NCBI GenBank assembly: GCA_029260055.1
Contig: JAJDDX010000424.1
Span: 20,586 to 84,585, forward strand
Reading direction: 5' to 3'
Origin: Phycisphaerae bacterium
Lineage (GTDB): Bacteria; Planctomycetota; Phycisphaerae; UBA1845
Length of the DNA: 64,000 bases
Shown: positions 1-15,160 of the stretch, in pieces
Layout: every line of letters starts with the position of its first letter
Numbering within the stretch: position 1 is the stretch's first letter
Notes under the pieces: generated by a model
What the model saw: only the letters and a program-made list of their open reading frames with translations
Databases searched by the model: none
Told to the model about the DNA's origin: nothing
Made by a program: the position numbers and the translations under genes

Positions 1-118
1 CGACGTAATCCGTCACCAATGATCGAGTCGAGGAAGAAGTTCCACGCGTCGTCCAAAAGAGTGCGCCCGCCACGAGCGCGACCAGGACCACTCCTCCTAG
101 GATCACTTTCGGCTTCAT
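1..118 (-). CDS. 5' part of a membrane-anchored protein, probably a second efflux periplasmic adaptor (runs off the window)
   Basis: Manual translation of the minus strand from ATG at 118 gives MKPKVILGGVVLVALVAGALFWTTRGTSSSTRSLVTDYV..., a basic N-terminus plus one TM helix. It follows an efflux operon on the same strand. Not in the ORF track; product is inferred from context only. Confidence 0.55.
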   Translation of the reverse strand, partial: MKPKVILGGVVLVALVAGALFWTTRGTSSSTRSLVTDYV

Positions 119-191
119 CTTCGTCTTATCCAATCATGCTTGGTGTGGTTCGCTTCGACGCCAACGCGTGCGCCGATCCGAGTGTACGTGG

Positions 192-1442
192 TCAAGGCCG
201 CTGGCCTCGCTGAGCCATTGTGTCAAGGTAGCGCTGCAGGGACAACAGCGCGAATCCGGTGCCCCATTTGTTGCCGTAATCCGCGGCGGCTGTGTCCCAC
301 CAGCTACCGTCCTCCTCCTGCGTCCGGATCATAGTCCACGCAAGACGGTCCCATCGCTCCTGCGGATAGTCCTTGCCCAGGAGCATAGCCAACTCGGTGG
401 CGTAGTTGTAGCCGTAGAAGTAGAAGTAGCCTGAAATCTGATGGACCGCGGTGTGGGGTTGGATCAGCTTGCGTCCGTCTTCCAGGTAGTTCTCGCCTTC
501 CTTGAACACGGCGAAGCTCGTCAGGATGTCGTCACGGTCGAAGCGCCCGACGGTGTGCAATGCCAGCGCCGCGACGACCGTGCGCGATCCCGCACCGAGC
601 TTCTTCAACATACTCGAAGGCCTGTTTCGATGGGCCGACGAGTAGACGAAGCTTCCGTCCGGTACGCGCATGAGCTGCAGAATGCGGGCGGCGTCATCGA
701 CCATGCCCTTCTTGACGGGCAGCCCGAGATCCTCGGCTCGTTTGAGGCAGATGATCATGTTGGCCGTCGTGAAGGACATCGAGTCGAAATCGCCCATCGG
801 CGAGGCGTAGTATCCCCATCCGCCTTCGTGCTGCTGGTACTTGGCAAGACCTTCGATGCAGATGGCGGCTGCCGTGCGGATCCGGTCGCGGAAGGGCTTG
901 CTGTCGTCGTGCGAGAGCCAGCGCGTCAGGAAGTCCAGTTTGTAGCAGTATCCCCAGATGTTGAAGCTTTCGCCTTTGTTGTAAGCGAATTTGGCGGTGT
1001 CCAGCAGGGCTTCCTGTGCCTTGAACAACGCTGCTTGCTGCTCCGCTGTGCGGTTCGGCGTCTCCATCAAGGCGTGGGCACAGATCGCGGTGCACGCCAA
1101 GCGCACGCCATCGTTGCTGCCACGGTTGCCCGTCTGGAATCCGAAGTCTTTGAGGCTTGCGACTTGTGGGTCGTGCGAGCCCCAGGTCCCGTCCTTGTTC
1201 TGCGATCTGACGAGGAAGTCGAGCCCGTCCTTGCGAGCTTCGACAGCCCGCTCGATGAGTTGCTTCGTTGACAGCGTCGGATCGAGTTGGTGTGCGTCCT
1301 CGCGGACAGGCTTCTTCTTATCTTGTATTTGCCTGTCCTGTGCCGACGCGCCAAGCGCACAGGCGCACACGGCCAACACGAAAGGTACGAGCACGCTTGC
1401 CGTTCGAGCCAGGCGGGATGCAGGTAAGCTTCGGTGGCTCAT
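192..1442 (-). CDS. Secreted prenyltransferase/squalene-oxidase-repeat (alpha/alpha toroid) protein
   Basis: Signal peptide. QW-like repeats QNKDGTWG, QQHEGGWGY, RVPDGSFVY and QEEDGSWW. No DxDD cyclase motif seen. Confidence 0.75.
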   Translation of the reverse strand: MSHRSLPASRLARTASVLVPFVLAVCACALGASAQDRQIQDKKKPVREDAHQLDPTLSTKQLIERAVEARKDGLDFLVRSQNKDGTWGSHDPQVASLKDFGFQTGNRGSNDGVRLACTAICAHALMETPNRTAEQQAALFKAQEALLDTAKFAYNKGESFNIWGYCYKLDFLTRWLSHDDSKPFRDRIRTAAAICIEGLAKYQQHEGGWGYYASPMGDFDSMSFTTANMIICLKRAEDLGLPVKKGMVDDAARILQLMRVPDGSFVYSSAHRNRPSSMLKKLGAGSRTVVAALALHTVGRFDRDDILTSFAVFKEGENYLEDGRKLIQPHTAVHQISGYFYFYGYNYATELAMLLGKDYPQERWDRLAWTMIRTQEEDGSWWDTAAADYGNKWGTGFALLSLQRYLDTMAQRGQRP

Positions 1443-1448
1443 GTCCGA

Positions 1449-2717
1449 TTACTCCGCCCGAAGTGCCAGCACGGGATCGAGGCGGGCGGCGTTGATGGCC
1501 GGCACCGTCCCGAAGATAAGACCCGTCAGTACGGAGACAATGATACCCAGTGGGAAAGAGAGCGGCTGAAACGCGACGGTCCAATCGGCCAGGGAACCAA
1601 CAGCCACGGCAAGCGCGGCTCCCGTCCCGACGCCGATGGCACCGCCCAGGCAGCACAATAGCGCGCTTTCCCCGACAAAGAGCCGTACGATATCCCGACG
1701 CGTCGCCCCGAGCGCGCGACGAAGCCCGATCTCCTGCCGCCGCTCCGCCATGTTGGCCAGCATGATGTTCATGATGCCGATGCCACCGACGAGCAGCGAG
1801 ATGGCAGCCAGTGATCCCATCACCCAGCGGAAGATCTGCTCGGCCTGCTTGTGCTCTTTCAGCAGCGAAAACGGTATCGTGACGGCGACGTCGTCTTGCC
1901 TGTGACGCTGACGCATCAGATTCTGTGCCGCCTGAGCGACAAGCTTCAGCGGCTTGCCGTCGCGGACCCGCAGGACCGCACGGTTCACTTCCAATTCCGT
2001 CGCTTCGCTGACGCCTTGTCCGCCGCGCGTCTGGAGTTTGCCAAACCGTGCGAACGACGTGGCGAAGGGAATATAGGCTGCGTTGTCGGGGTTCGACAGA
2101 ATTCCACCGCTGCCCGTCTGCCCCTTGCGCGGCATGACGCCCACGACCTTGAAGTGTGCTCCGCCGATCTTGACGACCTCGTCCACCGCGGATGAGAGTG
2201 GGAAGAGCTTGCGGGCCGCATCGGCTCCCAACACGCAGACAGCCGACGCGTTGGCTTCATCCGCGGCTGCCAGAAACCGACCCGAAGCTACGTGGTGTTC
2301 CATCACTTCGGTGTACTCCGGCGTCGTAGCGACGACGTTGATGTCCGAGAGTTGGAGGTTCGCGTAGACATCAGAGAGCATGACACGCATCGGCACGATG
2401 CTCTCGATCTCCGGCACGGTCTCTTTGAGGATATCCAGGTCCAGTCGAGTCATCCCGAAGCGAGCGACCCATGAATCCTCCGAGCGTTGTCGTTCCTGCT
2501 TTCGGATGTCCTCGGGTTTGACGCTGTCGAGGATGAGGTTGTGCAAGCCCATCCGCTCGATGCGCCCGATGACGTCGCGGCGGGCCACCTCGCTGATCGA
2601 TAGCATGCAAATGACCGAAGCCACACCGAAAATGATGCCGAGCGCCGCAAGGAACGAGCGCGTCTTGTGCAGCATCAGGTTCTGCCAAGCTTCGGCAACC
2701 AGTTTAAGTTGAGCCAT
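1449..2717 (-). CDS. MacB/FtsX-family ABC transporter permease
   Basis: RSFLAALGIIFGVASVI N-terminal TM, periplasmic domain, ISLLVGGIGIMNIML...ERRQEIGLRRALGA, and C-terminal PAINAARLDPVLALRAE. Confidence 0.93.
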   Translation of the reverse strand: MAQLKLVAEAWQNLMLHKTRSFLAALGIIFGVASVICMLSISEVARRDVIGRIERMGLHNLILDSVKPEDIRKQERQRSEDSWVARFGMTRLDLDILKETVPEIESIVPMRVMLSDVYANLQLSDINVVATTPEYTEVMEHHVASGRFLAAADEANASAVCVLGADAARKLFPLSSAVDEVVKIGGAHFKVVGVMPRKGQTGSGGILSNPDNAAYIPFATSFARFGKLQTRGGQGVSEATELEVNRAVLRVRDGKPLKLVAQAAQNLMRQRHRQDDVAVTIPFSLLKEHKQAEQIFRWVMGSLAAISLLVGGIGIMNIMLANMAERRQEIGLRRALGATRRDIVRLFVGESALLCCLGGAIGVGTGAALAVAVGSLADWTVAFQPLSFPLGIIVSVLTGLIFGTVPAINAARLDPVLALRAE

Positions 2718-3387
2718 TTACCACCTCGCCATCTTTCAGACGGATGCAGCGATCGGTGCGCGCCGCTAACTGTGCATCGTGGGTTACGATGATGATCGTC
2801 TTGCCCTCTTCATTCAGCGATTTGAGGAGGTTATACACCTCGTCGCCGTTCTCTTCGTCCAGGTTGCCGGTCGGCTCGTCCGCGAGAATCAGGCTCGGGT
2901 CGGTGAGCAGAGCCCGGGCGATCGCCACACGCTGCATCTCACCGTTGGACAGCTCGGTGGGGCGATGGTCGATCCGGTGGGAAAGCCCCACGCGATCCAC
3001 CAGTTCGAGCGCGCGTTTCCGCGTGTCGGTGCTCGACGTCTCCGGTGCGTACCGAGCGGAGAGGAGGACGTTCTCCAGCACCTTGATTTGCGGCACGAGG
3101 TGGAAAGACTGGAAGATGAATCCGATCTCCTTGCCGCGAACCTGGGAGCGTTCAAAGTCGCTCAATCCGTGCGCTTGCCGGCCACGAATCCGGTACTCGC
3201 CGGACGTGGGGCTGGTCAGCAGCCCGAGCAGGTAGAGCAGCGTCGATTTGCCCGATCCGGACTTGCCGACGATGGACATGAACTCAGCCTCTTCGATCGT
3301 GAGGCTGACCTGCCGCAGCGCGTGGACGTCGCCGCCGCGCATCGCGTAGACCTTCGAGATGTTGTCGATCGCAATCAGCGGGTCCAC
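2704..3387 (-). CDS. ABC transporter ATP-binding protein (LolD/MacB type)
   Basis: Walker A GKSGSGKST, GFIFQSFHL, signature LSNGEMQRVAIARAL, LILADEPTGNLD, VTHD. Overlaps the permease start. Confidence 0.95.
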   Translation of the reverse strand: MDPLIAIDNISKVYAMRGGDVHALRQVSLTIEEAEFMSIVGKSGSGKSTLLYLLGLLTSPTSGEYRIRGRQAHGLSDFERSQVRGKEIGFIFQSFHLVPQIKVLENVLLSARYAPETSSTDTRKRALELVDRVGLSHRIDHRPTELSNGEMQRVAIARALLTDPSLILADEPTGNLDEENGDEVYNLLKSLNEEGKTIIIVTHDAQLAARTDRCIRLKDGEVVNGST

Positions 3388-3390
3388 GGT

Positions 3391-4884
3391 CTACTCCTTA
3401 TCGGGATCGTAAAGCGTGACCCGCTCGCCGGGCCGCAGCCCTTCGGTGATTTCGACATACTTGCCGTTGGTGGCGCCGACCTTGACTTGGCGCCTGTCGG
3501 CGCGGTCGCCATCCTTGACGAGGCAGTAGTGCTCGCCCTCTTGCGAGAACACAGCCAGCACAGGCACCTGGACCGCGTCGGGCACCGCATCGGCGTGAAC
3601 CGTGACGCGGCAGTTCATGCCGGACCGCAACTGCTGGTAGATGCCTTCGTACTTCCCTCGCACCGTGAACTCACGCAGCTCCGACAGGAAACCCTGTCGC
3701 GATGCCACCTGGTCCACCTTCGTGATCTTGCCCGCGATCTTCAACGCCGGAAACGCGTCGGGTCGAACCGTCAGGGCGAGGCCTTCTTTCATGTGCTGAA
3801 TGTCGTTTTCGAAGACGCGCATCTTGACGGAGAGGTTTTCCATGGATGCAACGGTGATCAGAATCTGGTGCGTCCGCACCCGGCCACCGATGCGCATCTC
3901 GTCTCCGGCGCCACCACCGAACATCATCACGCCGGCGGGCATCTCATTTCCCATCGACCCGTAGAAGACGATGCCGTCCCGAGGGGCTAAAAGGCTGAGG
4001 TGCTTGCCGTCCTCTTCGTACTTGCCCAGCTCCCGTTTCGCCTTGTCGAGCTCCCGCTGCGCCTTGCTGGCGGCCGCACTCTTCTCGGCGAGCTCGGCCG
4101 AAAACTCGATCTGCTTCTTCTTGAGCTCCGCTTCCTTCTTGTTGACCTCGAGCCCCTTGGTCTTTACGTCCTCCTGGTTCTCGTAGGTCTTGTAGTGCTC
4201 GACGTCGCGAACGGTGTTCTTCAGTGCCAACTCGAGGTTCTCGATCTGGCGCTGCTCACGTTCGATGAGGATATTCTCGGTGGCTGTGTGTAGCTCTCGC
4301 TCGACGTAGAGCTGCTTGAGTTGTTCGAAGTCGACCTTGGCATCCGCCAGCCGGTCCTTGGCGTCCTTGATGTCCTTGGCCTGCTTGTCCTCGAGCTCGT
4401 GCTTCGCCTTCTTGGCGGCTCCCTCTGCCGCGAGCTTGGCCATCTCGAGTTCGGTTTCGAGCTGGTGTAGCGTCGCTTGTTGATCGATCTGGCCCGCGTC
4501 GTGGTCCGCCTGAGCCTTGTTCCGCGCGACTTCCTTGTCCGTCACTTCGTTTCTGGCGTCCTCCAGGGCCCGATCCAGGTTGTCCTGGTCGAACTCCATC
4601 AGAACGTCATCCTTCTTGACCTCGGTGCCTTCCGGGACAAGTGACGTGACGATGAGGTCGCCCTTGTATGCCTTGGGCTCGACGCGAAGCTCATCCTTGT
4701 CTTCCGCCTCGAACGTGCCCGAAAGCTCGACCTCGATCGGAAGGTCCTTCTTGACGACCTCGGCCTCCAGCGTGCCGCCTTGCCCGCCCCCGGCGTAGGC
4801 CGATGCCGGACCTGAGAGGAGCAGGGCGGCTGTGATGCACAGGCAGCCCCACCGACCATACGGATTACTTCTCACTCGACTCAT
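3391..4884 (-). CDS. HlyD/MacA-family periplasmic adaptor subunit with long coiled coil
   Basis: Signal/TM segment, lipoyl-like halves (LVPEGTEVKKDDVL; APRDGIVFY), long alpha-hairpin, LRSGM, C-terminal VEITEGLRPGERV. Confidence 0.88.
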   Translation of the reverse strand: MSRVRSNPYGRWGCLCITAALLLSGPASAYAGGGQGGTLEAEVVKKDLPIEVELSGTFEAEDKDELRVEPKAYKGDLIVTSLVPEGTEVKKDDVLMEFDQDNLDRALEDARNEVTDKEVARNKAQADHDAGQIDQQATLHQLETELEMAKLAAEGAAKKAKHELEDKQAKDIKDAKDRLADAKVDFEQLKQLYVERELHTATENILIEREQRQIENLELALKNTVRDVEHYKTYENQEDVKTKGLEVNKKEAELKKKQIEFSAELAEKSAAASKAQRELDKAKRELGKYEEDGKHLSLLAPRDGIVFYGSMGNEMPAGVMMFGGGAGDEMRIGGRVRTHQILITVASMENLSVKMRVFENDIQHMKEGLALTVRPDAFPALKIAGKITKVDQVASRQGFLSELREFTVRGKYEGIYQQLRSGMNCRVTVHADAVPDAVQVPVLAVFSQEGEHYCLVKDGDRADRRQVKVGATNGKYVEITEGLRPGERVTLYDPDKE

Positions 4885-5287
4885 AGCGTTTTCTCCCAGC
4901 CGCTTCTTTATGCTGTGGATGACGACCGTCTGTATTTCGCCTTGGGAATCAGCACGGAAGGCGTTTTTCCCCGCCCGTCGCCCAGGTTCACTTTGCGGAA
5001 TCTATCTAGGTTGACGACCAGCGCCGGAGCCCAAGCTCCTGCTTACAAGACGAGCGTTGCGAGCGTAACCCGCCACGAAAACCGGTTTCTTTGAAGAAAA
5101 ACCGGCAGTTCCCAGGTGGCGGGCACGACCCCCTCGCCCGCGCGAGGACGGCTGGTGGTGCCGGGAATCGGCCCCGGAACGGGCTCCTTCGAAGCGAGTT
5201 GGCTTCGACTTGCGTTGGTCGTAACCTTGGCGGCGGCGTAATCCCGGGCTTCGGCTGCTGCCGCGCCCTTTCCGCACGAGGGCTGCC

Positions 5288-6115
5288 GTGGCCTCTGTAC
5301 ACTGGATGACCATGGTGATCGCAAACGATGACGAGAGCGCGGCCGGTGAAGGCGCGTCCATTGAGTCCGTTCCGGGGCACGTATTCCTGGCCAAGATGGG
5401 CAAGAAGCTTCTTCGCCCCGGAGGCCGTCGAGCCACGGAAGAGCTGTTCACGCTGGCCGACCTGAAGCCGGGTGAGCGAGTCTGCGAGATCGCCACGAAT
5501 CGCGCGGTGACCGCCATGGAGTTGGCCGGGCGGTTCGGCGTTGAGGTGGATGGTGTCGACGCGAGTGAGGACTTCCTGTCGCTCGCTCGAAGGAACGTTG
5601 CCGCCCGCGGCTTGCAGGATCGCGTTCGGCTTCACGTGGGCAAGGGTCATGAGTTGCCGTTTGACGACGGCTCGTTCGATGTGGTGACCGCTGAGGCGGT
5701 GATCACGATGCTCCCGCTGAAGCGGAAGGCCGAGACGGTGACGGAGGCTGCGCGGGTGCTTCGGCCAGGCGGGCGTCTGGTGATCCACGAATTGGCGTGG
5801 GCTGACGACACGGAGACGGAGATTCAAAAGGAATTGGTCGCCGCCATTCGTCACGGTGCCAACCCGCTGACCATGGAGCAGTGGAAGGCTCTGGCCACAG
5901 AGGCGGGGCTGGGCGATGTCACCGTGCGTACGGGTATGATGTCGTTGATGTCGCCGCGCGGCCTGATTCGCGATGAAGGGATCGGCGGCGTGTGCCGGAT
6001 AGGGTTCAACGTGCTGCGCACACGCGGCGCGTTTTCCCGTTTCAAGACGATGGCGCGTTTCTTCCGGCGCCATCACCAGCGACTGCGTTACATCGTGATG
6101 TGTGCGGTGAAGTGA
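5288..6115 (+). CDS. Class I SAM-dependent methyltransferase (true start may be ATG 5306 or 5312)
   Basis: LRPGG, VCEIA motif I variant, GVDAS, LPFDDGSFDVV, RVLRPGGRL. Confidence 0.88.
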   Translation: MASVHWMTMVIANDDESAAGEGASIESVPGHVFLAKMGKKLLRPGGRRATEELFTLADLKPGERVCEIATNRAVTAMELAGRFGVEVDGVDASEDFLSLARRNVAARGLQDRVRLHVGKGHELPFDDGSFDVVTAEAVITMLPLKRKAETVTEAARVLRPGGRLVIHELAWADDTETEIQKELVAAIRHGANPLTMEQWKALATEAGLGDVTVRTGMMSLMSPRGLIRDEGIGGVCRIGFNVLRTRGAFSRFKTMARFFRRHHQRLRYIVMCAVK

Positions 6116-6204
6116 GCCGACACGGCGGCCGCGCCCAATGACCGGCGATCGGCTCAGTCGGTGCCGCTGACATCATGGTCGCGGTTATCGTCGTGGCCCG
6201 CCGA

Positions 6205-6690
6205 TCACGAGCCGCCGGAGATCAGGCCCACCAGCTTCTTGATTAGCGGCGTGATCATCGCGCTATCCGTGGGCTTTTTGATGAATTTGAAGGTCCAGCG
6301 GCCCTCTTTGTCGCGGGTGATCTCGATGTGGCTTTGCAGGGCGAACAGCGCCGCGCTCATGAGCACCGTGGCGCTGACGGGGTCCAGGGCGAAGGATCGC
6401 ATCTGCCCGCTGGAGGCATGGTTGATGAGGCTCTCAATGGGCCCGGCGTAGCGCTCGTCGCAGGCCAGCAACGCGAGCGTCTGGCGGGCGACTTCGGCTT
6501 GCGGCGCGGCGGCGGTTGCATCCGGAACGTCGAACTCGTCGCGCAGGGCGCTGCCGAGGTCGGGCGTCCACTCGAGCGTGCATTCGCCGGCGAGCTCACG
6601 CGGCTTGATGACCGCATCGAGTAGGCGCACGGCCGCCGCGTCGTCGAGTTCGCCGATGTTCCGCGCCAGTTCGGCGGCGTTCGTGGTCAT
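6205..6690 (-). CDS. Small hypothetical protein (161 aa) directly downstream of the CHAT-STAND-TPR gene
   Basis: ATG at 6690 preceded by GAAGGA RBS; 43 nt after the upstream stop. C-terminal third has a hydrophobic helix, a beta-hairpin-like segment and an amphipathic helix. Confidence 0.75.
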   Translation of the reverse strand: MTTNAAELARNIGELDDAAAVRLLDAVIKPRELAGECTLEWTPDLGSALRDEFDVPDATAAAPQAEVARQTLALLACDERYAGPIESLINHASSGQMRSFALDPVSATVLMSAALFALQSHIEITRDKEGRWTFKFIKKPTDSAMITPLIKKLVGLISGGS

Positions 6691-6733
6691 GTTCGGGTTC
6701 CTTCTCGGTTGCGGTTTTGGTGCTCTTGCGCGC

Positions 6734-9700
6734 TCACTCGTTCGTGGTTGGCGCGGGCGCGCCGTCACCCGCGCTGGCATCGGCGTTTGGACCGGCGGCG
6801 TCACTCGGACTGGCGTCGTCTACATCCGGTATCTCCGGCCACGCGCCGAGCCCCGCTTCGTCCCACATCGCCCGGAGTTTCGCCTGCACGTCGGGCGGCG
6901 CGTGCTTCCAAGTCACGAGATAATTGCGGGCGGTGCGTTCGACTTCGTGCGGAGCGTTGCATCGCATGAATGTCTGGCTGGACTTGATGAGCCACTTCGC
7001 CGCCTCCTCGTCCCGCCCTTGGCGTCCCGCAATGATTCCGAAGTGTTCGTACGTACCGGCTGCGGCATATTCGTCGCCCAGCTTATCGAAGATCGCAAGA
7101 GCCTTGCCATACCACTGTCCGGCTTTCGCAAAGTCATGCCGCTCTTGTGCGAGGTTCCCCAGTTGGCCGTACGTCATGGCCGCATGTTGATCGCTTCGCA
7201 GTTTCTCGAAGCTTGCAACGGCTTTGAGGTACCACTGCTGTGCGGCGACATGCTCCTGCTGTTTCTGGGCGACGATTCCCAGATGGTGGTAGGTCATCGC
7301 GGCGGCGTGTTCATCGTCCTGGTTCTTGTTGATCGCCAGCGACTTGAGACACCACCGTTTTGCGGCGGCGAAGTCGCTCTGCTGTTGCGCTACTATCCCC
7401 AATGCGAGGTAGACCTTAGCGGTGCCGGCATCATCCGGCTGCGCCTCCATTATCGCCAGCGATTTGAGGTACCATCTCTCGGCGGCGGCGGGGTCGTGCT
7501 GCTTGGCCGCGATATTCCCCAGTTGGGCGTACGTGGTGGCGGCGCCAGATTCGTTCCCCGTTTTCTGCTCGATCGCAAGCGACTTGAGATACCACTCCTC
7601 GGCGGCGGCGAAGTCGCGCCGTGCCTCGGCGATCATCCCCAGTTGGTGATAGGCGGCCGACTCTCCCTGGCGGTCTGCTCGCGTCTTCTGCGCGTTCGCT
7701 AGACGCGTGAACAAGTGGGCGGCGCCGGCGAAATCGCGCGCGTTCAGGGCAAACGAACCCATGGACTGCGTTAGGGCGCAGACGCCAATGTCGATGCCAA
7801 GCCGCTCGGCCTCGGTGAGGGCGTGGTGGAAGTTGGCGCTGTGTGCAGCGAAGAATCCTCGCTGTTCGTGGAGTTCTCGCGGGGCAAGTTGGTCGGCTAC
7901 TTGCGCCATCACATCCACAAACGCTCTGGTCCAGATGCCGCGGGCATCGGCGTCCGCTGCTGACAGCGCCGTGGCACTAAGGTAGCCGGTCAGTGCGGGG
8001 TGCATCTCGAAAACCGATGCAACCCGATGGCGAAGCAGGCCCGCTCCGCAGAGCGCCTCTGCGAAGCGATCGATGACCGCGCGTGACGGGCCTTCATCGA
8101 CCTGTTTGGCCATGTGTTCCAGGTAGTTCGCGTCCACGAAGCCCTCGTGCAGGGCAAGCGGAATCAGGAGCGGACGCTGTTCCTCCGGCAGCGAGTCCTC
8201 CACGAACCGCAGCGTGGCGGCCAGTTTGGCGCTGACCTCGTCCTCGTCGAGGCTCAGGTCCGCCAGGTTGCTGCGCAGGGCGGCTGCGAGTTGCCCGGCG
8301 CTGCGCTCGGCGAGCTTGGGGATGATGGCCCGCATCGCCAGCGTGTGGCCACCGAGCAGGTCCATCAGCTCGATCATGTCGCTGTCGGTGCGGTCGACCT
8401 TTAGCCCCTGGTCGCGCAGGACGACCTCGCAGTAGTCCCATCGCTCGTCGCCCTCCAGTCCGCCGATGGTGAGCAGGAATCGGTTTTCGTTTCCCAGCCA
8501 CTCCTCCGTCGAGCGGCTGGTGATGATCACCTTGGTCTTGCCGCCGCGAAGCTTCTTGAGGAAGGTGAGGAGGAGTTCGCGATCCTCGTCGGTCAGGTTT
8601 GCGGTGACCGATGTGCCGGCGATCCCCTTGGCGACCTCGAAGTTGTCCCAGACGATGACGAAGCGGTTTTCCTTGAAGGCGGCTGACAGGGCGTCGAGCT
8701 TTTGCTCCATCGGTGCCTTGATGAAGTCGGGTCCGTAGATCGCCGTGCCCATGCCGTGGATGACGAACTCGGCGTTGCGGATGTCGTTGAACGTGAACCA
8801 GAGGCATCCGTTGCCGAGCCCCTCCGTGGCCTCGAGCCATTGCGCGAAGCCGCGGGCCAGCGTGGTCTTACCAACGCCGCCGAGCCCGTGAATCAGTATC
8901 CCCGCGGGCGGGCGAAGCATTGCCCGTTCCAGGGCGAGCAGCGGGCCGTCGCGGCCGATGAAGCCGTAGGGGTTGTCCTCGTCGCGGGCGCCCTCCGGGA
9001 GTTGCGATTCACCGCGCTGAGCCGTTTTCTTCGCTTCCGTCGCGAAGGAGAAATCCAGGGGCTTCTGCTGGTAGACGACGGGCACGAGCCAATCCTTGAG
9101 CGGGAAGTCGCCTCGCGCGCAGATGCGGCCCGGATGGGCGAGCATTTGCTGCCGCCCCGCGCGCACGCCCTGGGCGACGTTGCCGGCCTCAAAGAGCCGC
9201 TCGTAAAACGCCGGCACGAAGTGTCTTGCGCCGCTGACGTAGAGCGAGTAGGCCATCGCCACCACGCTGCGCATGCCGGACTTCAGCAGCGACGCGGCCA
9301 CCGACGCGAAGGCGTCCTCCGCGTGGGAGTCGATCATCGCGGACTGACAGGCGTTGAGCACGACGGCGGGGACGGCGGATTCTTTCAGCAGGTTGCTGAG
9401 CTGCTCGGTGTCGACCTGGTCGGGCTCGCCCTTCTCGTCTTCAAAGACGAGCACGCCGCGTGAACCTTGCAGGCTGTGTCTCTGGTCGGCCGTCGCGCCG
9501 TCTGGTGAGGTCGTGCCGTAGCCGCCGTGTCCGTCGAAGTGCAGGATGTGGTAATGGTGCGGGTGTTCGCGCAGATGGCGGCGCAGTTGGTCGAAGGTCG
9601 GCGGCCGCAGAACCGTGACGTGGGCGGGGAGGTGATGTTCGTCGATCAACTCCACCAGCGGCCGCGAGATGGAGCGGTATCGCACGTCCTCCTTGTACGG

Positions 9701-10228
9701 CCGAGCTGTGACCAGCAGGATGTTCACGCGATCCTTCGGCAAGCGTTCATCGAGTGGTGGCGGATCGACGATCTCGTTGATGCGGCGTTCGATCTGACAG
9801 GTTTGCGCGAGCAGGCCGGCCGAGGAATCCTCCAGCGCCTCCCACGGCCACGCGAGGATGCGCGGATCGTCACTGGATACCTGCAAGTGCAGGCGATCGT
9901 AGTGTCCGTCGTTCGTGGCTTGTGCAAGGAACGCGCCGCCCTGTTTCGTGTCGAACAGGGTGTCGAACGCTTGTCGCCCCCATGTGCGGAGGGCGTCGAG
10001 CACGCGGTCGGCGTGGTCGGTCTCCGGCGCAAAGGGGTAGGCAAGGAACTGTTCGAGGTACCAGCGGAGTTCCCGCACGAGGCCGCTGTCGGGCCTGCCG
10101 TCGACGGGGAAGCCGACGGGTGGCGTGATGGCGGCCGACTTCGTGCGTTTGCCGTCTTTTAGGCGTTCGACGTGGAAGGTGGGGCTATCGTCGGGGCCAC
10201 CCGTGTGTCGGATGATAAGCGTGTTCAT
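6734..10228 (-). CDS. CHAT (caspase-like) protease - STAND/NB-ARC NTPase - TPR protein (NLR-like)
   Basis: CHAT motifs ILAWPWEAL, ILHFDGHG (catalytic His), VVLNACQS (catalytic Cys) and SVVAM. Walker A GLGGVGKTT, Walker B VIVWDNFE, IITSR, GGHTLA (GxP-like), MHP (MHD-like). About six 40-aa TPR repeats (AYHQLG...WYLKSLAI). RBS AAGGA. Confidence 0.9.
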   Translation of the reverse strand: MNTLIIRHTGGPDDSPTFHVERLKDGKRTKSAAITPPVGFPVDGRPDSGLVRELRWYLEQFLAYPFAPETDHADRVLDALRTWGRQAFDTLFDTKQGGAFLAQATNDGHYDRLHLQVSSDDPRILAWPWEALEDSSAGLLAQTCQIERRINEIVDPPPLDERLPKDRVNILLVTARPYKEDVRYRSISRPLVELIDEHHLPAHVTVLRPPTFDQLRRHLREHPHHYHILHFDGHGGYGTTSPDGATADQRHSLQGSRGVLVFEDEKGEPDQVDTEQLSNLLKESAVPAVVLNACQSAMIDSHAEDAFASVAASLLKSGMRSVVAMAYSLYVSGARHFVPAFYERLFEAGNVAQGVRAGRQQMLAHPGRICARGDFPLKDWLVPVVYQQKPLDFSFATEAKKTAQRGESQLPEGARDEDNPYGFIGRDGPLLALERAMLRPPAGILIHGLGGVGKTTLARGFAQWLEATEGLGNGCLWFTFNDIRNAEFVIHGMGTAIYGPDFIKAPMEQKLDALSAAFKENRFVIVWDNFEVAKGIAGTSVTANLTDEDRELLLTFLKKLRGGKTKVIITSRSTEEWLGNENRFLLTIGGLEGDERWDYCEVVLRDQGLKVDRTDSDMIELMDLLGGHTLAMRAIIPKLAERSAGQLAAALRSNLADLSLDEDEVSAKLAATLRFVEDSLPEEQRPLLIPLALHEGFVDANYLEHMAKQVDEGPSRAVIDRFAEALCGAGLLRHRVASVFEMHPALTGYLSATALSAADADARGIWTRAFVDVMAQVADQLAPRELHEQRGFFAAHSANFHHALTEAERLGIDIGVCALTQSMGSFALNARDFAGAAHLFTRLANAQKTRADRQGESAAYHQLGMIAEARRDFAAAEEWYLKSLAIEQKTGNESGAATTYAQLGNIAAKQHDPAAAERWYLKSLAIMEAQPDDAGTAKVYLALGIVAQQQSDFAAAKRWCLKSLAINKNQDDEHAAAMTYHHLGIVAQKQQEHVAAQQWYLKAVASFEKLRSDQHAAMTYGQLGNLAQERHDFAKAGQWYGKALAIFDKLGDEYAAAGTYEHFGIIAGRQGRDEEAAKWLIKSSQTFMRCNAPHEVERTARNYLVTWKHAPPDVQAKLRAMWDEAGLGAWPEIPDVDDASPSDAAGPNADASAGDGAPAPTTNE

Positions 10229-10494
10229 GTCGGTTCCTTGACGCGCTGTGTCCTTGTGCCGGTCGGTGGCGGTGCGGGATTGCGCGGGATGGGGTCGTGT
10301 CGAATCGCTCCTATGACGTGCCGCCTGTCAAGTCGCGTCGTCGGCGGAGCGGGCTTACGACTTCGGGTGACTCGCCGTAGCGACGCGACCAGTCTACAGC
10401 AACTCATTCAGGAGATGAAGAGGTTTTCTCAGTGATTCGTCGCAATGGCCGACAACCGTGTAGGTGAAAACACCTACACGCGATGCCCGCCGGG

Positions 10495-10610
10495 TCAGTT
10501 GGCGGCGAACCTTGCTGAAAACTCGCCGAAGTCGTCCAGGTCGACATCGCCGTCTGTGTCGGCGTCGAAGGTTGCCAGGCAGGACTGGGCCGTCGTTGGC
10601 AGCGGCGGTC
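10495..10610 (-). pseudogene. Orphan remnant of a dockerin-like C-terminus
   Basis: Reads PPLPTTAQSCLATFDADTDGDVDLDDFGEFSARFAAN*, closely resembling the end of 50719..56253 (QDCLAAFDFDADSDVDLADFSAFERSF). No own in-frame start or RBS. Confidence 0.6.
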
Positions 10611-10636
10611 TTGCTTGGCATCGCCCCTGCGCGTTA

Positions 10637-11146
10637 CTAGTCTTGGAGAATGCGAACGTCCCAGCCGGTCGGCGTCCCATCAAGGGCTCGAAGGGCGACT
10701 CTGGTGTTCTTGTCCTCGACATCAACGACGTCTTGTAGCAGGAGGATGGGCTGCAGGTCGGGGTCCTTTCCTGCTTCGCCGGGCGGGACCCTATAGTGAA
10801 ACACCTTGTATTGTATCTGTAGGGGGTCCGCGTCTACGAGATTCAGGCCGATGAAGACGCCGTTCGCTTTTGTCTCGTCAGTGACACCCGGTGTGTAGAA
10901 GACCGGATTGGGCCCCGCGGAATCGATCTCGACGAACTCCCCCGACGGCAGGTTGTGGGCGGTGTCCGCCACCCGGCGCGGCGGCTCCAGGCCGAGGTTG
11001 ACCGGGTAGGGCGTCAGCGTTTCAAAAGTGCGGTTATGGAACTCAATCTTCGACGTGAAATCGCACCCGGCTGATACGACGATTGCGCCGACGGCACACC
11101 AGCAGATCTCACACCACGAGACTAGTCGTCTTTTCGTTCGAGACAT
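10637..11146 (-). CDS. Hypothetical lipoprotein
   Basis: ATG at 11146 with AAGGAG/GGAG upstream; basic N-terminus, hydrophobic stretch and lipobox VSAG-C. Confidence 0.7.
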   Translation of the reverse strand: MSRTKRRLVSWCEICWCAVGAIVVSAGCDFTSKIEFHNRTFETLTPYPVNLGLEPPRRVADTAHNLPSGEFVEIDSAGPNPVFYTPGVTDETKANGVFIGLNLVDADPLQIQYKVFHYRVPPGEAGKDPDLQPILLLQDVVDVEDKNTRVALRALDGTPTGWDVRILQD

Positions 11147-11170
11147 GATTCTCCAAGCTCCTTTGGAACT

Positions 11171-11195
11171 GACGTTTCCGAAATGACACGGTCCC
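11171..11195 (-). promoter_or_regulatory. Possible ECF-type promoter of the lipoprotein gene
   Basis: Minus strand reads GGGAC-N16-CGTC, resembling GGAAC...CGTC ECF promoters. A divergent ECF gene is adjacent. Confidence 0.3.
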
Positions 11196-11455
11196 AAGCG
11201 AAGGGGTACGCATGGTACGAGTTCAGCCTCGTCGACTCAACAGACCGCGTGAGCGCTTTAGCTCGTCTTTCCATCGTTTCAGCATTTTGTCGTCTCGCGT
11301 CTCGGAACCGAGAGGGCGGAATGGGCCGCAGCAATCCTTGCGCGCTGGCAAGCAGGTGGTGGGGGCGTTCTGTAAGAACATGTCTCGGGCGTGAGGGGTG
11401 CGCGGGGTCCGTGGCATACTTGTAGTGACAGGCCTGTAGATGCGGAGGCAGCGAG

Positions 11456-12055
11456 GTGGAGATCGCGGGCACAGCCAGCGAGATCGAACAGATAGTCGGC
11501 ACGGTCAGCCCGTGCGGGCGTCGTGATGCGCTGCGCCAGGTGTTCCGAAGTGTCGGGGGCGGCGTCTATCGCTTCATCCTTGTTCGCGTCGGGGGCGACC
11601 GCGACGTGGCGGACGATCTGCTGCAGCAGACGTGCTACGAGGCGGCGCGGCACCGTCGCCCGCCGGCGGATGTCGACGAGTGCGAAGCGTGGCTCCGCGG
11701 CATCGCACGGAACTTGGTCCGAAGGCACTGGCGAAGCGCGAGGCGAGATGCGGGGCGTGTGTCGATCGCCGATCCCGCGGTCGCGAATCGCCTGGCCGAC
11801 GACTTGGAGACGCGTCCGCTGCCGGTGGACGCGCTGGTCAAGGAAGAGTGGACGACTCAGTTGCTGTTGGCGGTTACATCGCTGGCGGCAGCGGATCAGG
11901 AGCTGATCTTCGCGTACTACTTCGACGGCCGTCCCCAGGCTGCGATCGCTAGCGACCTGGGGGTGACGGACAAGAGCGTCGAGAATCGGCTCTATCGAGC
12001 GCGGGGTCGCCTTCGAGAGGCCCTGCGGCACATGGGAAGGTCTGGTGAGCGATGA
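11456..12055 (+). CDS. ECF-family RNA polymerase sigma factor
   Basis: Sigma2 DVADDLLQQT...AWLRGIARNLVRRHWR; sigma4 YYFDGRPQAAIASDLGVTDKSVENRLYRARGRLR. Confidence 0.92.
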   Translation: MEIAGTASEIEQIVGTVSPCGRRDALRQVFRSVGGGVYRFILVRVGGDRDVADDLLQQTCYEAARHRRPPADVDECEAWLRGIARNLVRRHWRSARRDAGRVSIADPAVANRLADDLETRPLPVDALVKEEWTTQLLLAVTSLAAADQELIFAYYFDGRPQAAIASDLGVTDKSVENRLYRARGRLREALRHMGRSGER

Positions 12056-13137
12056 GCGAATCACGCGACCCCGATCAACAGTTACATGAGAATCTTCGCC
12101 TGTGGGGCGGTCAGATCGACGCGCCGCCGGGACCTTCGAAAGAGGTCATGGCCCGGTGCGCCGACTCGCTAAGCCCGGCCCGTCAGGCTCGAGAGTGGAG
12201 GATACTGAGGATGATGAAGAAACCGTCCGTACTGTCAGGATTGGGGCTCGCCGCATGTGCGGCTCTGGTGGTCACGTTCCTGCTTCCGTTTGGCAAAGCG
12301 CCCATGGTGCAGGCCGCCACCATCATGGAGAAGCTCAACCAGCAGGTCGAGCAGAGCCAGGTGCTCGAGGTGACCATCGACAACGTCACACTTGAGGAGG
12401 CGTTTCTCGAAGGAACCATCCAAATCTCTCAGCTCGGCATAGCGGGTGATTTGGAGGTCAAGGTGGACGAGGGTGACGGCGAGAAGATCGAGCTGGATCT
12501 GGCGCTCGCCATCGGGCCCGACGGGGGCTGGGTGCTCATTCGCAAGCTGGTCATATCCGATCCGGATGTCCAGGCGGTGTTGAATGCGTTCCTGCCGGCC
12601 GGCTCCGACACACTTGTGATCCTGCCGGGCGATGAGCTGGGCGGCGACATCACGCCCGACATCATGGGGGAAATCGGCGACATCCTCTCGGCGGACGTGT
12701 TCGATGCGCTACGCGAGGCGATCGAATCGCAGGAAATCGACGGCGCTACGATCGAGAATCAACGTGACGGGACGGTGCTGCTCACATTACCGCTGGACAG
12801 CGCCGAGACGCTGGCTGCGCTCGAGCGGCTGCACGCCGCCGGTTCCTCTGATGACGACGAAGAGAAGGCAAAGCGAACAGCGCACCATGAGATAGCCCAA
12901 CACGTCCACGGCGACGACGAGTTGATCGGGAGCACGCTGAAGGTGGTCTACGATCCCGCGACTCAGCTCGTGCGTTCGTTTACCATCGAGGACTTCGGCG
13001 ACAGCGACGGGAGCATCAGCGTCACGATCGGTGAGGGCGAACCCGACCCGGCGCGGTTCGACAGCAGCCGCGTGACGACGCCGCAAACGCGTACGCTGGA
13101 CCTCAGCATGCTCAAGGAGATGTTCCACGGCAGTTAG
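12052..13137 (+). CDS. Putative anti-sigma factor (single TM, acidic periplasmic domain)
   Basis: ATGA overlap with the ECF gene; about 55-aa cytoplasmic N-terminus, TM VLSGLGLAACAALVVTFLL, beta-rich C-terminal domain. Confidence 0.65.
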   Translation: MSESRDPDQQLHENLRLWGGQIDAPPGPSKEVMARCADSLSPARQAREWRILRMMKKPSVLSGLGLAACAALVVTFLLPFGKAPMVQAATIMEKLNQQVEQSQVLEVTIDNVTLEEAFLEGTIQISQLGIAGDLEVKVDEGDGEKIELDLALAIGPDGGWVLIRKLVISDPDVQAVLNAFLPAGSDTLVILPGDELGGDITPDIMGEIGDILSADVFDALREAIESQEIDGATIENQRDGTVLLTLPLDSAETLAALERLHAAGSSDDDEEKAKRTAHHEIAQHVHGDDELIGSTLKVVYDPATQLVRSFTIEDFGDSDGSISVTIGEGEPDPARFDSSRVTTPQTRTLDLSMLKEMFHGS

Positions 13138-13181
13138 CGAGGTAGGCGCTTCGTTAGCATCCATGCCATCCGGAAAACGCG

Positions 13182-13222
13182 ACGCCCGCGGCGGTCGACA
13201 GGACTTTGCCGCGGGCGTTTTT
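13182..13222 (+). terminator. Intrinsic terminator
   Basis: 11-bp stem ACGCCCGCGGC/GCCGCGGGCGT followed by a T run, 45 nt after the anti-sigma stop. Confidence 0.7.
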
Positions 13223-13372
13223 CATGTGGCGAAGCGGGTTGCCGCCAATTCTCATGGCCCGCCTTTGCAGTGGCGGGCTTAAATTGGTTAAATGCCAGTG
13301 TGGGGCCGGTGCCGGATCCCGCGTTCGAACAGTTGGCTGAAACAGAGCCCTTGTGCGATCGTGAGCGTAACC

Positions 13373-14953
13373 ATGTCTGCGCCCGTTGACTTGCCGGACC
13401 GAATGAACGCCGCCGCGATCTTCGTGGATGCCAACGTGGAGGCCGGCCGAGGCGGGCAGGTGGCGATCCATGACGCCGGAAGGGGCGTCAGTTTCACCTA
13501 CGACTTTGTTCTCGAGATGACGAACCGGACGGGCAATGCGCTGCGTGCGCTCGGTGTGCGTCGGGAAGAGCGTGTCATGCTCCTGCTGCTCGATTCGCCT
13601 GAGTTCGTCTTTAGCTTCTTCGGGGCCATCAAGATCGGCGCGGTGCCGATCCCTACCAACACGTTGCTCAAACCGCACGATTACGAGTACCTGCTCAACG
13701 ACAGCCGCGCCCGCGTGCTGATCGTTAGTGAATCGCTGGCCGCGCAGCTCGAACCGATTCTGCCTCGCGCCGCGTACCTGGAGCACATCATCGTCGTCGG
13801 TGAGCCCGGCGAGGGGCAGTTGGGCTATGCGGCGTTGGTCGACGCAGCCCCAGCAGAGCTTTCTCCCGAGATGCTCAGTAGAGACGACGCGTGTTTCTGG
13901 CTCTACAGCTCGGGGACGACGGCCTTCCCGAAAGGTGCGGTCCATCTGCAACACGACATGATCGTGGAGGCTGATCTGTACGCACAGCAGGTGCTGGGCA
14001 TCGGTGAGAGTGACCGCTGCTTTTCGGTCGCTAAGCTCTTCTTTGCTTACGGGCTCGGCAACGGGTTGTACTTTCCGTTTCGCGTCGGCGCGTCGACGAT
14101 TCTCCATCCCGGCAAGCCTGATCCAGCCAGGATGTATGAGATCATCCAGGAGCACCGCCCGACGATCTTCTATTCCGTGCCCACGGGCTATGCCGCCATG
14201 CTCGCCATCGAGGATGCCGCTTCGCGATTCGACTTGAGCAGTGTGCGACTTTGCGTGTCGGCTGGCGAGGCGTTACCCGCGGCGCTGTACGAGCGATGGC
14301 AGGAGCGCTTCGGCGTCGAAATCCTCGACGGAATCGGCTCTACCGAGATCCTTCACATCTTCATCTCGAATCGACCGGGTCGCGTGAAGCCCGGGTCGAT
14401 CGGCGAAATCGTGCCCGGGTACGAGGCCAGGATTCTGGATGAGCACAACCGGGTGGTAGCGATCGGCGAGGTGGGAGACTTGCTGATCAAAGGCGATTCG
14501 ACCTGCCAATGCTACTGGAATCAGCACGAGGCGACGAAGGCCACGATCGAGGGCCATTGGATTCGCACCGGTGACAAGTGCTCGCGCGACGCGGATGGCT
14601 ACTTCTGGTATCAGGGGCGGTCCGACGACATGCTCAAGGTCGGTGGCATTTGGGTGTCACCCGTGGAGGTCGAGAGTATTCTGACTACGCACCCAGCCGT
14701 TCTGGAAGCCGCGGTCGTCGGCATGGACGATGCGCATGGTCTGAGCAAACCGAAGGCGTTCGTCGTGCTCAAGGAAGGTCCGCCGGCCGACCCGGATGGC
14801 CTAGCGGCTGAGCTGCAGGCGTTCGTGAAGGAGCGAGCCGCGCCCTACAAGTTCCCGCGCTGGGTGGAGTTCGTTACCGAACTGCCCAAGACCGCCACGG
14901 GGAAGATTCGACGATACATGTTACGGGACTCGCAGGCTGGATGGCACGCCTGA
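13373..14953 (+). CDS. Benzoate-CoA ligase family protein
   Basis: FWLYSSGTTAFPKGAVH, SVAKLFFAYGLGN, VSAGEALP, ILDGIGSTEILHIFISN, GRSDDMLKVGGIWVSP, LPKTATGKI. Confidence 0.92.
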   Translation: MSAPVDLPDRMNAAAIFVDANVEAGRGGQVAIHDAGRGVSFTYDFVLEMTNRTGNALRALGVRREERVMLLLLDSPEFVFSFFGAIKIGAVPIPTNTLLKPHDYEYLLNDSRARVLIVSESLAAQLEPILPRAAYLEHIIVVGEPGEGQLGYAALVDAAPAELSPEMLSRDDACFWLYSSGTTAFPKGAVHLQHDMIVEADLYAQQVLGIGESDRCFSVAKLFFAYGLGNGLYFPFRVGASTILHPGKPDPARMYEIIQEHRPTIFYSVPTGYAAMLAIEDAASRFDLSSVRLCVSAGEALPAALYERWQERFGVEILDGIGSTEILHIFISNRPGRVKPGSIGEIVPGYEARILDEHNRVVAIGEVGDLLIKGDSTCQCYWNQHEATKATIEGHWIRTGDKCSRDADGYFWYQGRSDDMLKVGGIWVSPVEVESILTTHPAVLEAAVVGMDDAHGLSKPKAFVVLKEGPPADPDGLAAELQAFVKERAAPYKFPRWVEFVTELPKTATGKIRRYMLRDSQAGWHA

Positions 14954-15160
14954 ATAGTGGCCCGCTTCCGTGCCAATCCCGCAACGTCTACTGCGACGTC
15001 GCTGCAAGCCGCCATTTGGCGTCAGGCCTGGTGTCTACCCCGGCGGGCCAGCCGCCCTTTCAGCAGCGGAAGTCTCGGCCCCGATCGATCTGCCGCCGCT
15101 ATACGAGTCCGGTGGCCGACGTGCCAGGCGCACATCTTCGTGGCGTTCGGAACCGTTTAC

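Follow-up and report, generated by a model that had tools for sequence, protein, structure and literature searches.

A small protein encoded beside a CHAT-STAND-TPR protein in a Phycisphaerae bacterium: a candidate protease-licensed membrane effector of a new family

Ten families of protease partners, namely MBL, alpha/beta-hydrolase, Pepco, EACC1, PCaspase, gasdermin, CATASP, MPE, CalpT and Csx30, have been surveyed in a preprint (bioRxiv 10.1101/2025.11.14.688446). EACC1 was defined as a 5′ gene, coding for one conserved membrane-type helix with a small-residue patch, beside a variable-domain caspase (Kaur et al. 2020, 'System 4', PMC7159879). The EACC1 protein has been shown to be a pore former that is set free by a protease: caspase-Avs12 cuts it into two fragments, of which the N-fragment (5.7 kDa) is inhibitory and the C-fragment (7.1 kDa) alone is toxic, and only the cut protein causes liposomes to leak (Evans et al. 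2025, bioRxiv 10.1101/2025.11.14.688446). In the inhibited state described there, the N-terminal strands and two C-terminal strands make up one sheet. The locus described here lies in a 64,000-nucleotide stretch of DNA from a Phycisphaerae bacterium (contig JAJDDX010000424.1, positions 20,586 to 84,585 of the forward strand), termed the window, and comprises the genes for a small protein of 161 amino acids, P0001, and for a CHAT-STAND NTPase-TPR protein of 1164 amino acids, P0002. P0001 is put forward, tentatively and by analogy with such systems, as the substrate of a two-gene NLR-like conflict module and as its effector, a membrane-active protein of a new family that is licensed by the protease.

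The small gene and its ribosome-binding site were located as follows.

6205..6690, minus strand: P0001 gene, 161 amino acids (ATG at 6690, stop codon at 6205-6207), supported by the open reading frame, homologues and an AlphaFold2 model
6698..6706, minus strand: Shine-Dalgarno-like GAGAAGGAA in the 43-nucleotide spacer, read directly from the sequence

The frame reported in a first-pass annotation of this DNA, 161 amino acids on the minus strand at 6205-6690, was exact. The gene starts 43 nucleotides past the P0002 stop codon on the same strand, with GAGAAGGAA 8-16 nucleotides 5′ of the ATG, and no promoter-like site was found in the spacer. A look-up of RNA evidence for 6205-10228 listed no RNA holder. 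A longer frame started by GTG (6205-6804) is also open in the list of reading frames; eight close relatives align from the P0001 ATG. A word-indexed search returned eight relatives of 112-166 amino acids that share 44-62% identity with P0001 (E 1e-26 to 1e-45), while an exhaustive search of 1.84 billion cluster representatives retrieved 325 matches at E<=1e-3, of which 111 reach E<=1e-10. The P0001 gene is therefore real and more than a chance reading frame. Among the P0001 matches listed, 149 of 150 were stand-alone proteins of 61-193 amino acids and none was fused to an effector. The family alignment, A2, to which every count out of 139 given below refers, contains 139 of the best 150 matches. 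Eleven were left out: nine fragments of 61-136 amino acids, P0145, whose C-terminal half could not be aligned, and P0040, a repetitive protein of 1685 amino acids matched in seven stretches and judged to be spurious as a family member.

The neighbouring gene and its domains were assigned as follows.

6734..10228, minus strand: P0002 gene, 1164 amino acids, presumed sensor-protease partner (Pfam; orthologues 5′ of the small gene in loci L003, L004 and L011)
9131..9898, minus strand: CHAT (caspase-like, clan CD) domain, residues 111-366 (Pfam, E 2.5e-20)
8429..8962, minus strand: STAND P-loop NTPase core, approximately residues 423-600 (Walker A GGVGKT at 450-455, Walker B VIVWD at 524-528)
6854..7681, minus strand: TPR array, approximately residues 850-1125, presumed sensor (TPR_12, E 7.6e-28)

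The His/Cys dyad of the CHAT domain was found to be intact (HFDGHG at 230-235 and Cys294 in NACQS), and the NTPase region gave weak Pfam matches to NB-ARC, NACHT, AAA_16 and nSTAND. P0002 fits a STAND/NLR-like architecture, in which an effector domain, a P-loop NTPase and repeats are carried on one chain with the catalytic motifs intact, and from its sequence it looks like a catalytically competent NLR-like sensor with a caspase-like output. PADLOC assigned only generic TPR and weak CHAT models to P0002, and none of its Avs models was matched. In support of the first-pass annotation, which invoked clan CD proteases, the P0001 gene is the conserved 3′ neighbour of a CHAT protease with intact His/Cys and Walker A/B motifs. 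A second CHAT-STAND protein, of 1572 amino acids, is encoded in the genome from which the window comes, here G000 (G000:C323:8550-13268; L023:4551-9269, minus strand). It is 31% identical to P0002 over residues 52-699. The small family has no member next to this gene, and none was seen beside the other CHAT-STAND paralogues in G000 and in genome G374.

Conservation of the pairing was checked by tblastn of P0002 against the fetched loci, together with maps of their reading frames, and four loci with a P0002 orthologue were inspected.

Window: P0002 itself 5′ of the small gene; gap 43 nucleotides
L003 (metagenome): P0002-like gene, 47% identity over 619-1123, cut by the contig start; gap 73 nucleotides
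L004 (metagenome contig Ga0074195_1006301): P0002-like gene, 50% identity over 595-1131; gap 85 nucleotides
L011 (Acidisarcina polymorpha plasmid pACPOL1): genes for a 748-amino acid CHAT protein, a 406-amino acid TPR protein and a 150-amino acid hypothetical protein; gap 0 nucleotides

In all four, the gene that ends in TPRs is followed on its 3′ side by the small gene, both on one strand and 0-85 nucleotides apart. On pACPOL1 the 748-amino acid 'CHAT domain-containing protein' is 59% identical to P0002 over residues 1-737 and the TPR protein 37%, and IS6 transposases and an integrase lie near the pair. Acidisarcina belongs to the Acidobacteriota, and plasmid searches with three family members recovered the Acidisarcina plasmid only. 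No third gene next to the pair was conserved in L003, L004 and L011. The family was present in 2 of 401 sampled genomes of the phylum of the window and in 3 of 41 relatives of its genome (that genome being counted in both cases), and in none of three genomes of the same genus; the commonest taxa in the protein atlas rows were Actinomycetota and Pseudomonadota. The plasmid locus in a second phylum, taken with the rarity of the family in the phylum of the window, suggests that the pair travels as a unit. Three copies without the partner, all in the phylum of the window, were found to be decayed, one by a frameshift and a TGA at the conserved Trp (G440:C41; L036 ~6760-7160) and two by in-frame stops (G414:C205, that is L037, contig 10426-10626; and G374:C73:2281-2705). 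Orphan copies of the small gene tend to decay, in a small sample in which one orphan is intact.

The L004 contig also carries a second P0002-like gene (L004:6864-8381, 57% identity over 1-510) on the same strand, ~4.7 kb downstream of the small gene. The contig may therefore hold two tandem CHAT-STAND-TPR systems; its end precedes any second small gene.

The structure of P0001 was predicted by AlphaFold2 with A2 as input (mean predicted local distance difference test, pLDDT, 87.3; predicted template modelling score, pTM, 0.83), and three parts were delimited.

6415..6690, minus strand: residues 1-92, acidic five-helix N-part, proposed cage or inhibitory domain (AlphaFold2 helices, charge)
6373..6414, minus strand: residues 93-106, loop, candidate cleavage region (…SSGQMR-S-F-ALDP…; pLDDT, low conservation, column counts)
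6208..6372, minus strand: residues 107-161, helix, amphipathic hairpin and amphipathic basic helix, proposed released effector module (AlphaFold2, conservation, moments)

The N-part was modelled as helices 3-13, 17-33, 43-53, 64-76 and 79-92, the loop at lower confidence (pLDDT ~71 over a 10-residue block), and the C-part as helix 107-119, a hairpin of strands 122-126 and 132-136, and helix 143-158. The order previously read from the sequence, an acidic helical N-part followed by a loop, a hydrophobic helix, a hairpin and an amphipathic helix, was thus reproduced by the model almost residue for residue. The best conserved segments of P0001 are 63-92, 107-121 and 122-138, and the loop is the least conserved, with a mean top-residue frequency of 0.25. 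The net charge of P0001 is -9 before F100 and +3 from F100 on, and the contrast proposed for P0001, in which the N-part is acidic and the C-part basic and hydrophobic, proved to be family-wide. Before the F100 column the members have a mean of 92 residues and a mean charge of -6.1 (negative in 133/139); from it on they have a mean of 61.5 residues and +3.0 (128/139 positive, nine zero and two negative). A Kyte-Doolittle value of at least 1.6 over 19 residues was reached by 105/139 members. The central helix (105-120) is evenly hydrophobic and non-amphipathic, with a moment of 0.08-0.09 and a mean hydrophobicity of 0.51, and Gly, Ala, Ser and Thr make up half of it (fraction 0.50 in P0001, family mean 0.44). 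The strands are amphipathic (moments of 0.36 and 0.64 in P0001; family means 0.56 and 0.63), as is the last helix (0.39 in P0001, about 0.4). Four copies of residues 98-161, run with the family alignment, gave an assembly score of 0.38, against a mark of 0.42 and controls of 0.00.

The reading of P0001 as a protease-licensed effector is favoured by its conserved linkage to a protease that is intact, by a charge split seen across the family, by the composition of the central helix and by the EACC1 precedent. The TPR array of P0002 would sense a trigger, most likely phage-derived, and P0002 would oligomerise via its NTPase, so that the CHAT domain is activated. P0001 would then be cut in the exposed loop 93-106 next to F100, either after R98 or S99 or just after F100, and the cut would separate the acidic helical N-part from a basic, hydrophobic C-piece of ~60 residues (helix, hairpin, helix). 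The freed C-piece would self-associate on or in the cytoplasmic membrane and permeabilise it, and the cell would be killed or arrested. That P0001 is cut, where the cut falls, that the C-piece assembles and damages the membrane, and that the module serves in defence are what we infer here. It could also be, and this is advanced with somewhat greater reserve, that an unnamed family of death effectors has arrived independently at the design of EACC1, with an acidic helical cage, a helix-hairpin-helix piece of ~60 residues, release by a CHAT-STAND-TPR protein and a lesion of the membrane.

Comparison with EACC1 (PF19953) was made using the sequences of a two-gene EACC1-caspase locus in genome G393 (L013) and of a Nonomuraea EACC1-caspase fusion (L014); the EACC1 alignment, A3, contains 17 sequences, namely 16 relatives of the Nonomuraea reading frame and P0160, of the L013 type. 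The EACC1-like query P0159 found only itself. None of the 139 members of the P0001 family matched PF19953 at E<=0.1, and P0001 itself had no EACC1 match at E<=1; as a control, five EACC1-type proteins were scanned, of which three matched PF19953 and two exceeded its cut-off. Alignment of A2 with A3 by hhalign scored 1.8% for the whole proteins, 4.7% for the C-halves and 0.3% for the N-halves. The AlphaFold model of EACC1 (pLDDT 81, pTM 0.73) runs strand-helix-strand, disordered Pro-rich loop (48-53), short helix, strand, helix 73-85, hairpin 91-105 and helix 110-124, and matches ferredoxin-like folds at Z 6-8 (best Z 8.3). In this model of EACC1, a ferredoxin-like alpha+beta sandwich, the N-terminal strands lie beside the C-terminal hairpin. 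P0001, by contrast, is predicted as a five-helix bundle and one hairpin, has no strand in its N-part and found no match above Z 4.9.

In layout the two proteins are alike. Each is a small, non-enzymatic, stand-alone protein encoded beside a clan-CD protease fused to a STAND/Avs-type sensor, with an acidic N-part, a Pro-rich loop of low confidence and a C-piece of ~60-70 residues (~7 kDa) made of a hydrophobic helix rich in small residues, a hairpin and a final helix. P0001 has a hydrophobic helix with a small-residue patch of the EACC1 type, a resemblance of layout only. The N-part is ~92 residues long in P0001 and ~45-50 in EACC1; the P0001 gene is 3′ of the protease gene in the four linked loci, whereas the EACC1 gene is 5′; and the partner domain is CHAT (PF12770) for P0001 and Peptidase_C14 in the two EACC1 loci inspected. 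On the alignments, models and loci, P0001 and EACC1 share a layout and not a sequence, fold or gene order, and P0001, as judged from its sequence and predicted fold, is not EACC1. The earlier description of P0001 as reminiscent of EACC1, and not clearly of the same family, holds.

In the Nonomuraea gerenzanensis record NZ_LT559118.1, which is entered as a 'plasmid' of 11.85 Mb and has just 10 features annotated, L014:3773-6142 is a reading frame of 789 amino acids composed of an EACC1-like N-terminus, Peptidase_C14 and a C-terminus rich in hydrophobic segments. At L013:1233-2845 (G393:C59) the EACC1-like gene overlaps the start of a 390-amino acid caspase gene by 20 nucleotides. The EACC1 N-terminus there seems to run on in another frame (reading frame 1233-1424), as would follow from a frameshift or from a fault in the assembly.

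Bacterial gasdermins follow the scheme proposed for P0001, in that an autoinhibited pore former is licensed by a neighbouring caspase-like or CHAT protease to which repeat or NTPase sensors are fused. They differ in their greater size and in that a short peptide at the C-terminus keeps them inhibited. No gasdermin match in Pfam was found among the 139 members, and the Foldseek and VIA-align searches gave no gasdermin row above noise (only 5wqt_B, E 1.7, TM score 0.19). The Csx29 (TPR-CHAT)/Csx30/Csx31 set of type III-E CRISPR likewise combines CHAT with TPR and cuts a protein of its own locus, at Csx30 sites that vary from one orthologue to the next (PMC11106740). CATRA is short for 'Caspase and TPR repeat-associated', CATASP for 'CATRA-associated small protein' (PMC12657218). 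The P0001 locus differs from type III-E in having no CRISPR effector, no Csx30-like gene and no sigma factor in the operon, and P0002, unlike Csx29, carries a STAND NTPase and C-terminal TPRs. The P0001 locus lacks the Csx30/Csx31/sigma set of type III-E, to which we presume CATRA systems to correspond, a correspondence to be taken as a lead and not as a test.

Several observations weigh against P0001 being a protease-licensed effector, and the first of them concern the junction. The family motif here is G-P-x-P-[EQRK]-[RSQA]-[FMYL]. The P92 column holds Pro in 100/139 members, the R98 column is mixed (E37, Q34, R28, K13), as is the S99 column (R43, S31, Q13, A12), and the F100 column, with F94, M17, Y12 and L11, is a large hydrophobic residue in 134/139. 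An Arg or Lys is found within the three residues preceding the F100 column in 96/139 members and is absent from 43/139. Conservation of an Arg/Lys-Phe linker had been set beforehand as a test of the cleavage proposal; the hydrophobic residue is constant and the Arg/Lys variable, so the proposed Arg-Phe site is only partly conserved. The premise of the first-pass annotation that clan CD proteases cut after Arg turned out to be of little help with CHAT domains. In three orthologues of Craspase, Csx30 is cut between A and S, L and D, and M and K, and single substitutions around the Jettenia Csx30 site fail to abolish cleavage (PMC11106740). With CHAT cut sites so variable, the partial conservation of Arg/Lys decides little, and a cut just before F100 and one just after it are equally possible.

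The predicted structure raises further points of this kind, several of which suit a different role for P0001, judged rather unlikely, as a non-lytic partner: an inhibitor or chaperone holding the protease off, a TPR-bound co-sensor or guarded bait, or a substrate from which, as with Csx30 in type III-E CRISPR, cleavage frees a regulatory fragment and not one that damages membranes. P0001 is predicted as one compact unit (pTM 0.83) and not as two loosely tethered domains, as would suit a stable binding protein. Helices 63-92 are conserved like the C-module (top-residue frequency 0.54 versus 0.55-0.56), which would be unexpected if they formed no more than a cage to be discarded. The run that is hydrophobic throughout has only ~14-16 residues, short for a classical membrane-spanning helix, the best 19-residue hydropathy of P0001 is borderline at 1.72, and the hydrophobic helix may, going by the model, simply be the core helix of a soluble protein. 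Homology of the family to proven pore formers was not detectable by Pfam, Foldseek, VIA-align or hhalign. CHAT substrates need not form pores, as Csx30 illustrates (PMC10028731), and the conserved linkage is expected of a non-lytic partner just as it is of an effector. Note, however, that a non-lytic role explains neither why, across the family, the N-part is acidic and the C-part basic and hydrophobic nor why the central helix is non-amphipathic and rich in small residues. In addition, a domain search of the family revealed no DNA-binding, sigma-binding or enzyme domain, and no output gene or sigma factor is conserved beside the pair in L003, L004 and L011.

It is very unlikely that P0001 is instead an effector-associated-domain or death-like adaptor, the helical N-part of which would recruit proteins to the STAND oligomer by homotypic contacts. 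Such adaptors are common in systems of this type (PMC8195603), and residues 1-97 weakly match CARD, pyrin and bacterial death-like domains (4uz0, 4n1j, 4e9m, 6mks, 8ss1) at Z 2.8-3.2. These values, however, fall within the stated noise of the tool, which gave a best overall Z of 4.9 to an unrelated protein. BLASTP found no similarity between P0001 and P0002 (best E 3.2), so that no homotypic partner is visible, and the near-uniform stand-alone state of the relatives listed, with none fused to an effector, argues against an adaptor as well.

The remaining points against the protease-licensed reading concern the context of the genes. Only four partner-linked loci were inspected, of a family with 325 representatives. 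The copy in G374:C120 (L009:1613-2056, 147 amino acids, near the contig start) is intact; no P0002-like or CHAT/TPR gene was found 1.6 kb upstream or within ~12 kb downstream of it, its neighbours are without a Pfam match, and the CHAT-STAND genes of G374, on other contigs, are only 25-32% identical to P0002. In the window itself, no defence island surrounds the genes; the neighbours are housekeeping-like, namely an ABC efflux operon, a methyltransferase, a pair of genes of the extracytoplasmic function, ECF, sigma type and an acyl-CoA ligase. That the adjacency is incidental and the role of P0001 independent of the protease, as this orphan and these surroundings might suggest, is the least probable explanation of all, given that order and strand are kept with gaps of 0-85 nucleotides in four loci that include a second phylum, that the 43-nucleotide spacer has no promoter-like site and that three partner-less copies have decayed.

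Searches against known families and folds gave no identity for P0001. In Pfam no family was matched by more than 4/139 members, and no protease-partner family was present among 25 of the 35 Pfam families matched by family members. Pepco, Trypco and similar protease partners, which we take to be modelled in Pfam, were named at first as profiles to compare with P0001; no such family appeared among the matches listed (25 of 35). Nothing relevant was found in NCBIfam (top family 3/139 members, E 0.04), PADLOC gave no match for P0001, and the best hit of a sequence profile search of the PDB had an E value of 0.24. With the P0001 model as query, Foldseek against the PDB and viral models returned no row at E<=0.001, and VIA-align over 48,161 chains reached the best Z already given, 4.9, below the noise guide of the tool. 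The protein atlas held only unnamed clusters for P0001 and no named cluster for the C-fragment. A literature text search, in which papers are not searchable by sequence, retrieved no paper naming the family. The kind of system is known; the P0001 family and its predicted fold appear to be new against the families compared, among which CATASP was compared by name only.

Two likenesses were considered and rejected. The ABATE domain (PF07336, DUF1470) resembles P0001 in that its helices precede a hairpin with a Trp and a helix that closes the domain, and the match of P0015 covers its residues 13-142 and positions 4-124 of the 130 in the profile. The best match was, however, 20.3 bits against a cut-off of 24.4, only 4/139 members matched at E<0.1, hhalign against seven ABATE domains gave 0.6%, and the solved structure 3h0n gave E 2.8 and a TM score of 0.16 against the P0001 model. 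In L002, AsmA-like proteins are encoded at 7653-10232 and 10408-11964, with N-terminal …ERDKEGRWSF… or …ERNRKGVWNF…, like the P0001 hairpin. The motif …ERDKEGRWSF… was made by the search pattern itself, it lies in a membrane protein of 859 amino acids, and the AsmA-like match was treated as chance.

Elsewhere in the window, the G+C content is flat (58.5-66% over 1-16000), with no signal of a recent insertion. The ECF sigma pair (11456-13137, plus strand) consists of a gene for an ECF-type sigma factor-like protein of 199 amino acids followed by one for a protein of 361 amino acids with one hydrophobic segment, a probable anti-sigma factor as judged by eye, and it lies divergent from the CHAT-STAND-TPR gene, ~1.2 kb upstream of P0002. 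It recalls the type III-E loci, which also have a sigma factor. No sigma gene is annotated at the Acidisarcina locus and no sigma-domain match was found in the scanned reading frames of L003 and L004, so the pair is probably unrelated. At 1449-4884 on the minus strand there is a MacAB-like efflux set, so called from the translations alone, composed of a 422-amino acid permease, a 227-amino acid ABC ATPase and a 497-amino acid coiled-coil periplasmic adaptor.

It is becoming clear that NLR-like immunity in bacteria acts in large part through effectors gated by proteases, in parallel with animal caspase-gasdermin signalling. Because it has no match to the families that could be tested and no known fold, the P0001 family would join the list of effectors in the preprint. 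If P0001 is a membrane effector, a very small caged protein of this type would be known for a second time, from an unrelated family; if its role proves to be regulatory, CHAT-STAND sensors would have gained an accessory of a new kind. Should the family indeed have come independently to the design of EACC1, a hydrophobic helix with an amphipathic hairpin and an amphipathic helix would be a recurrent minimal pore-forming solution in bacterial immunity, and one such pore-forming unit would have a fold that is absent from the Protein Data Bank.

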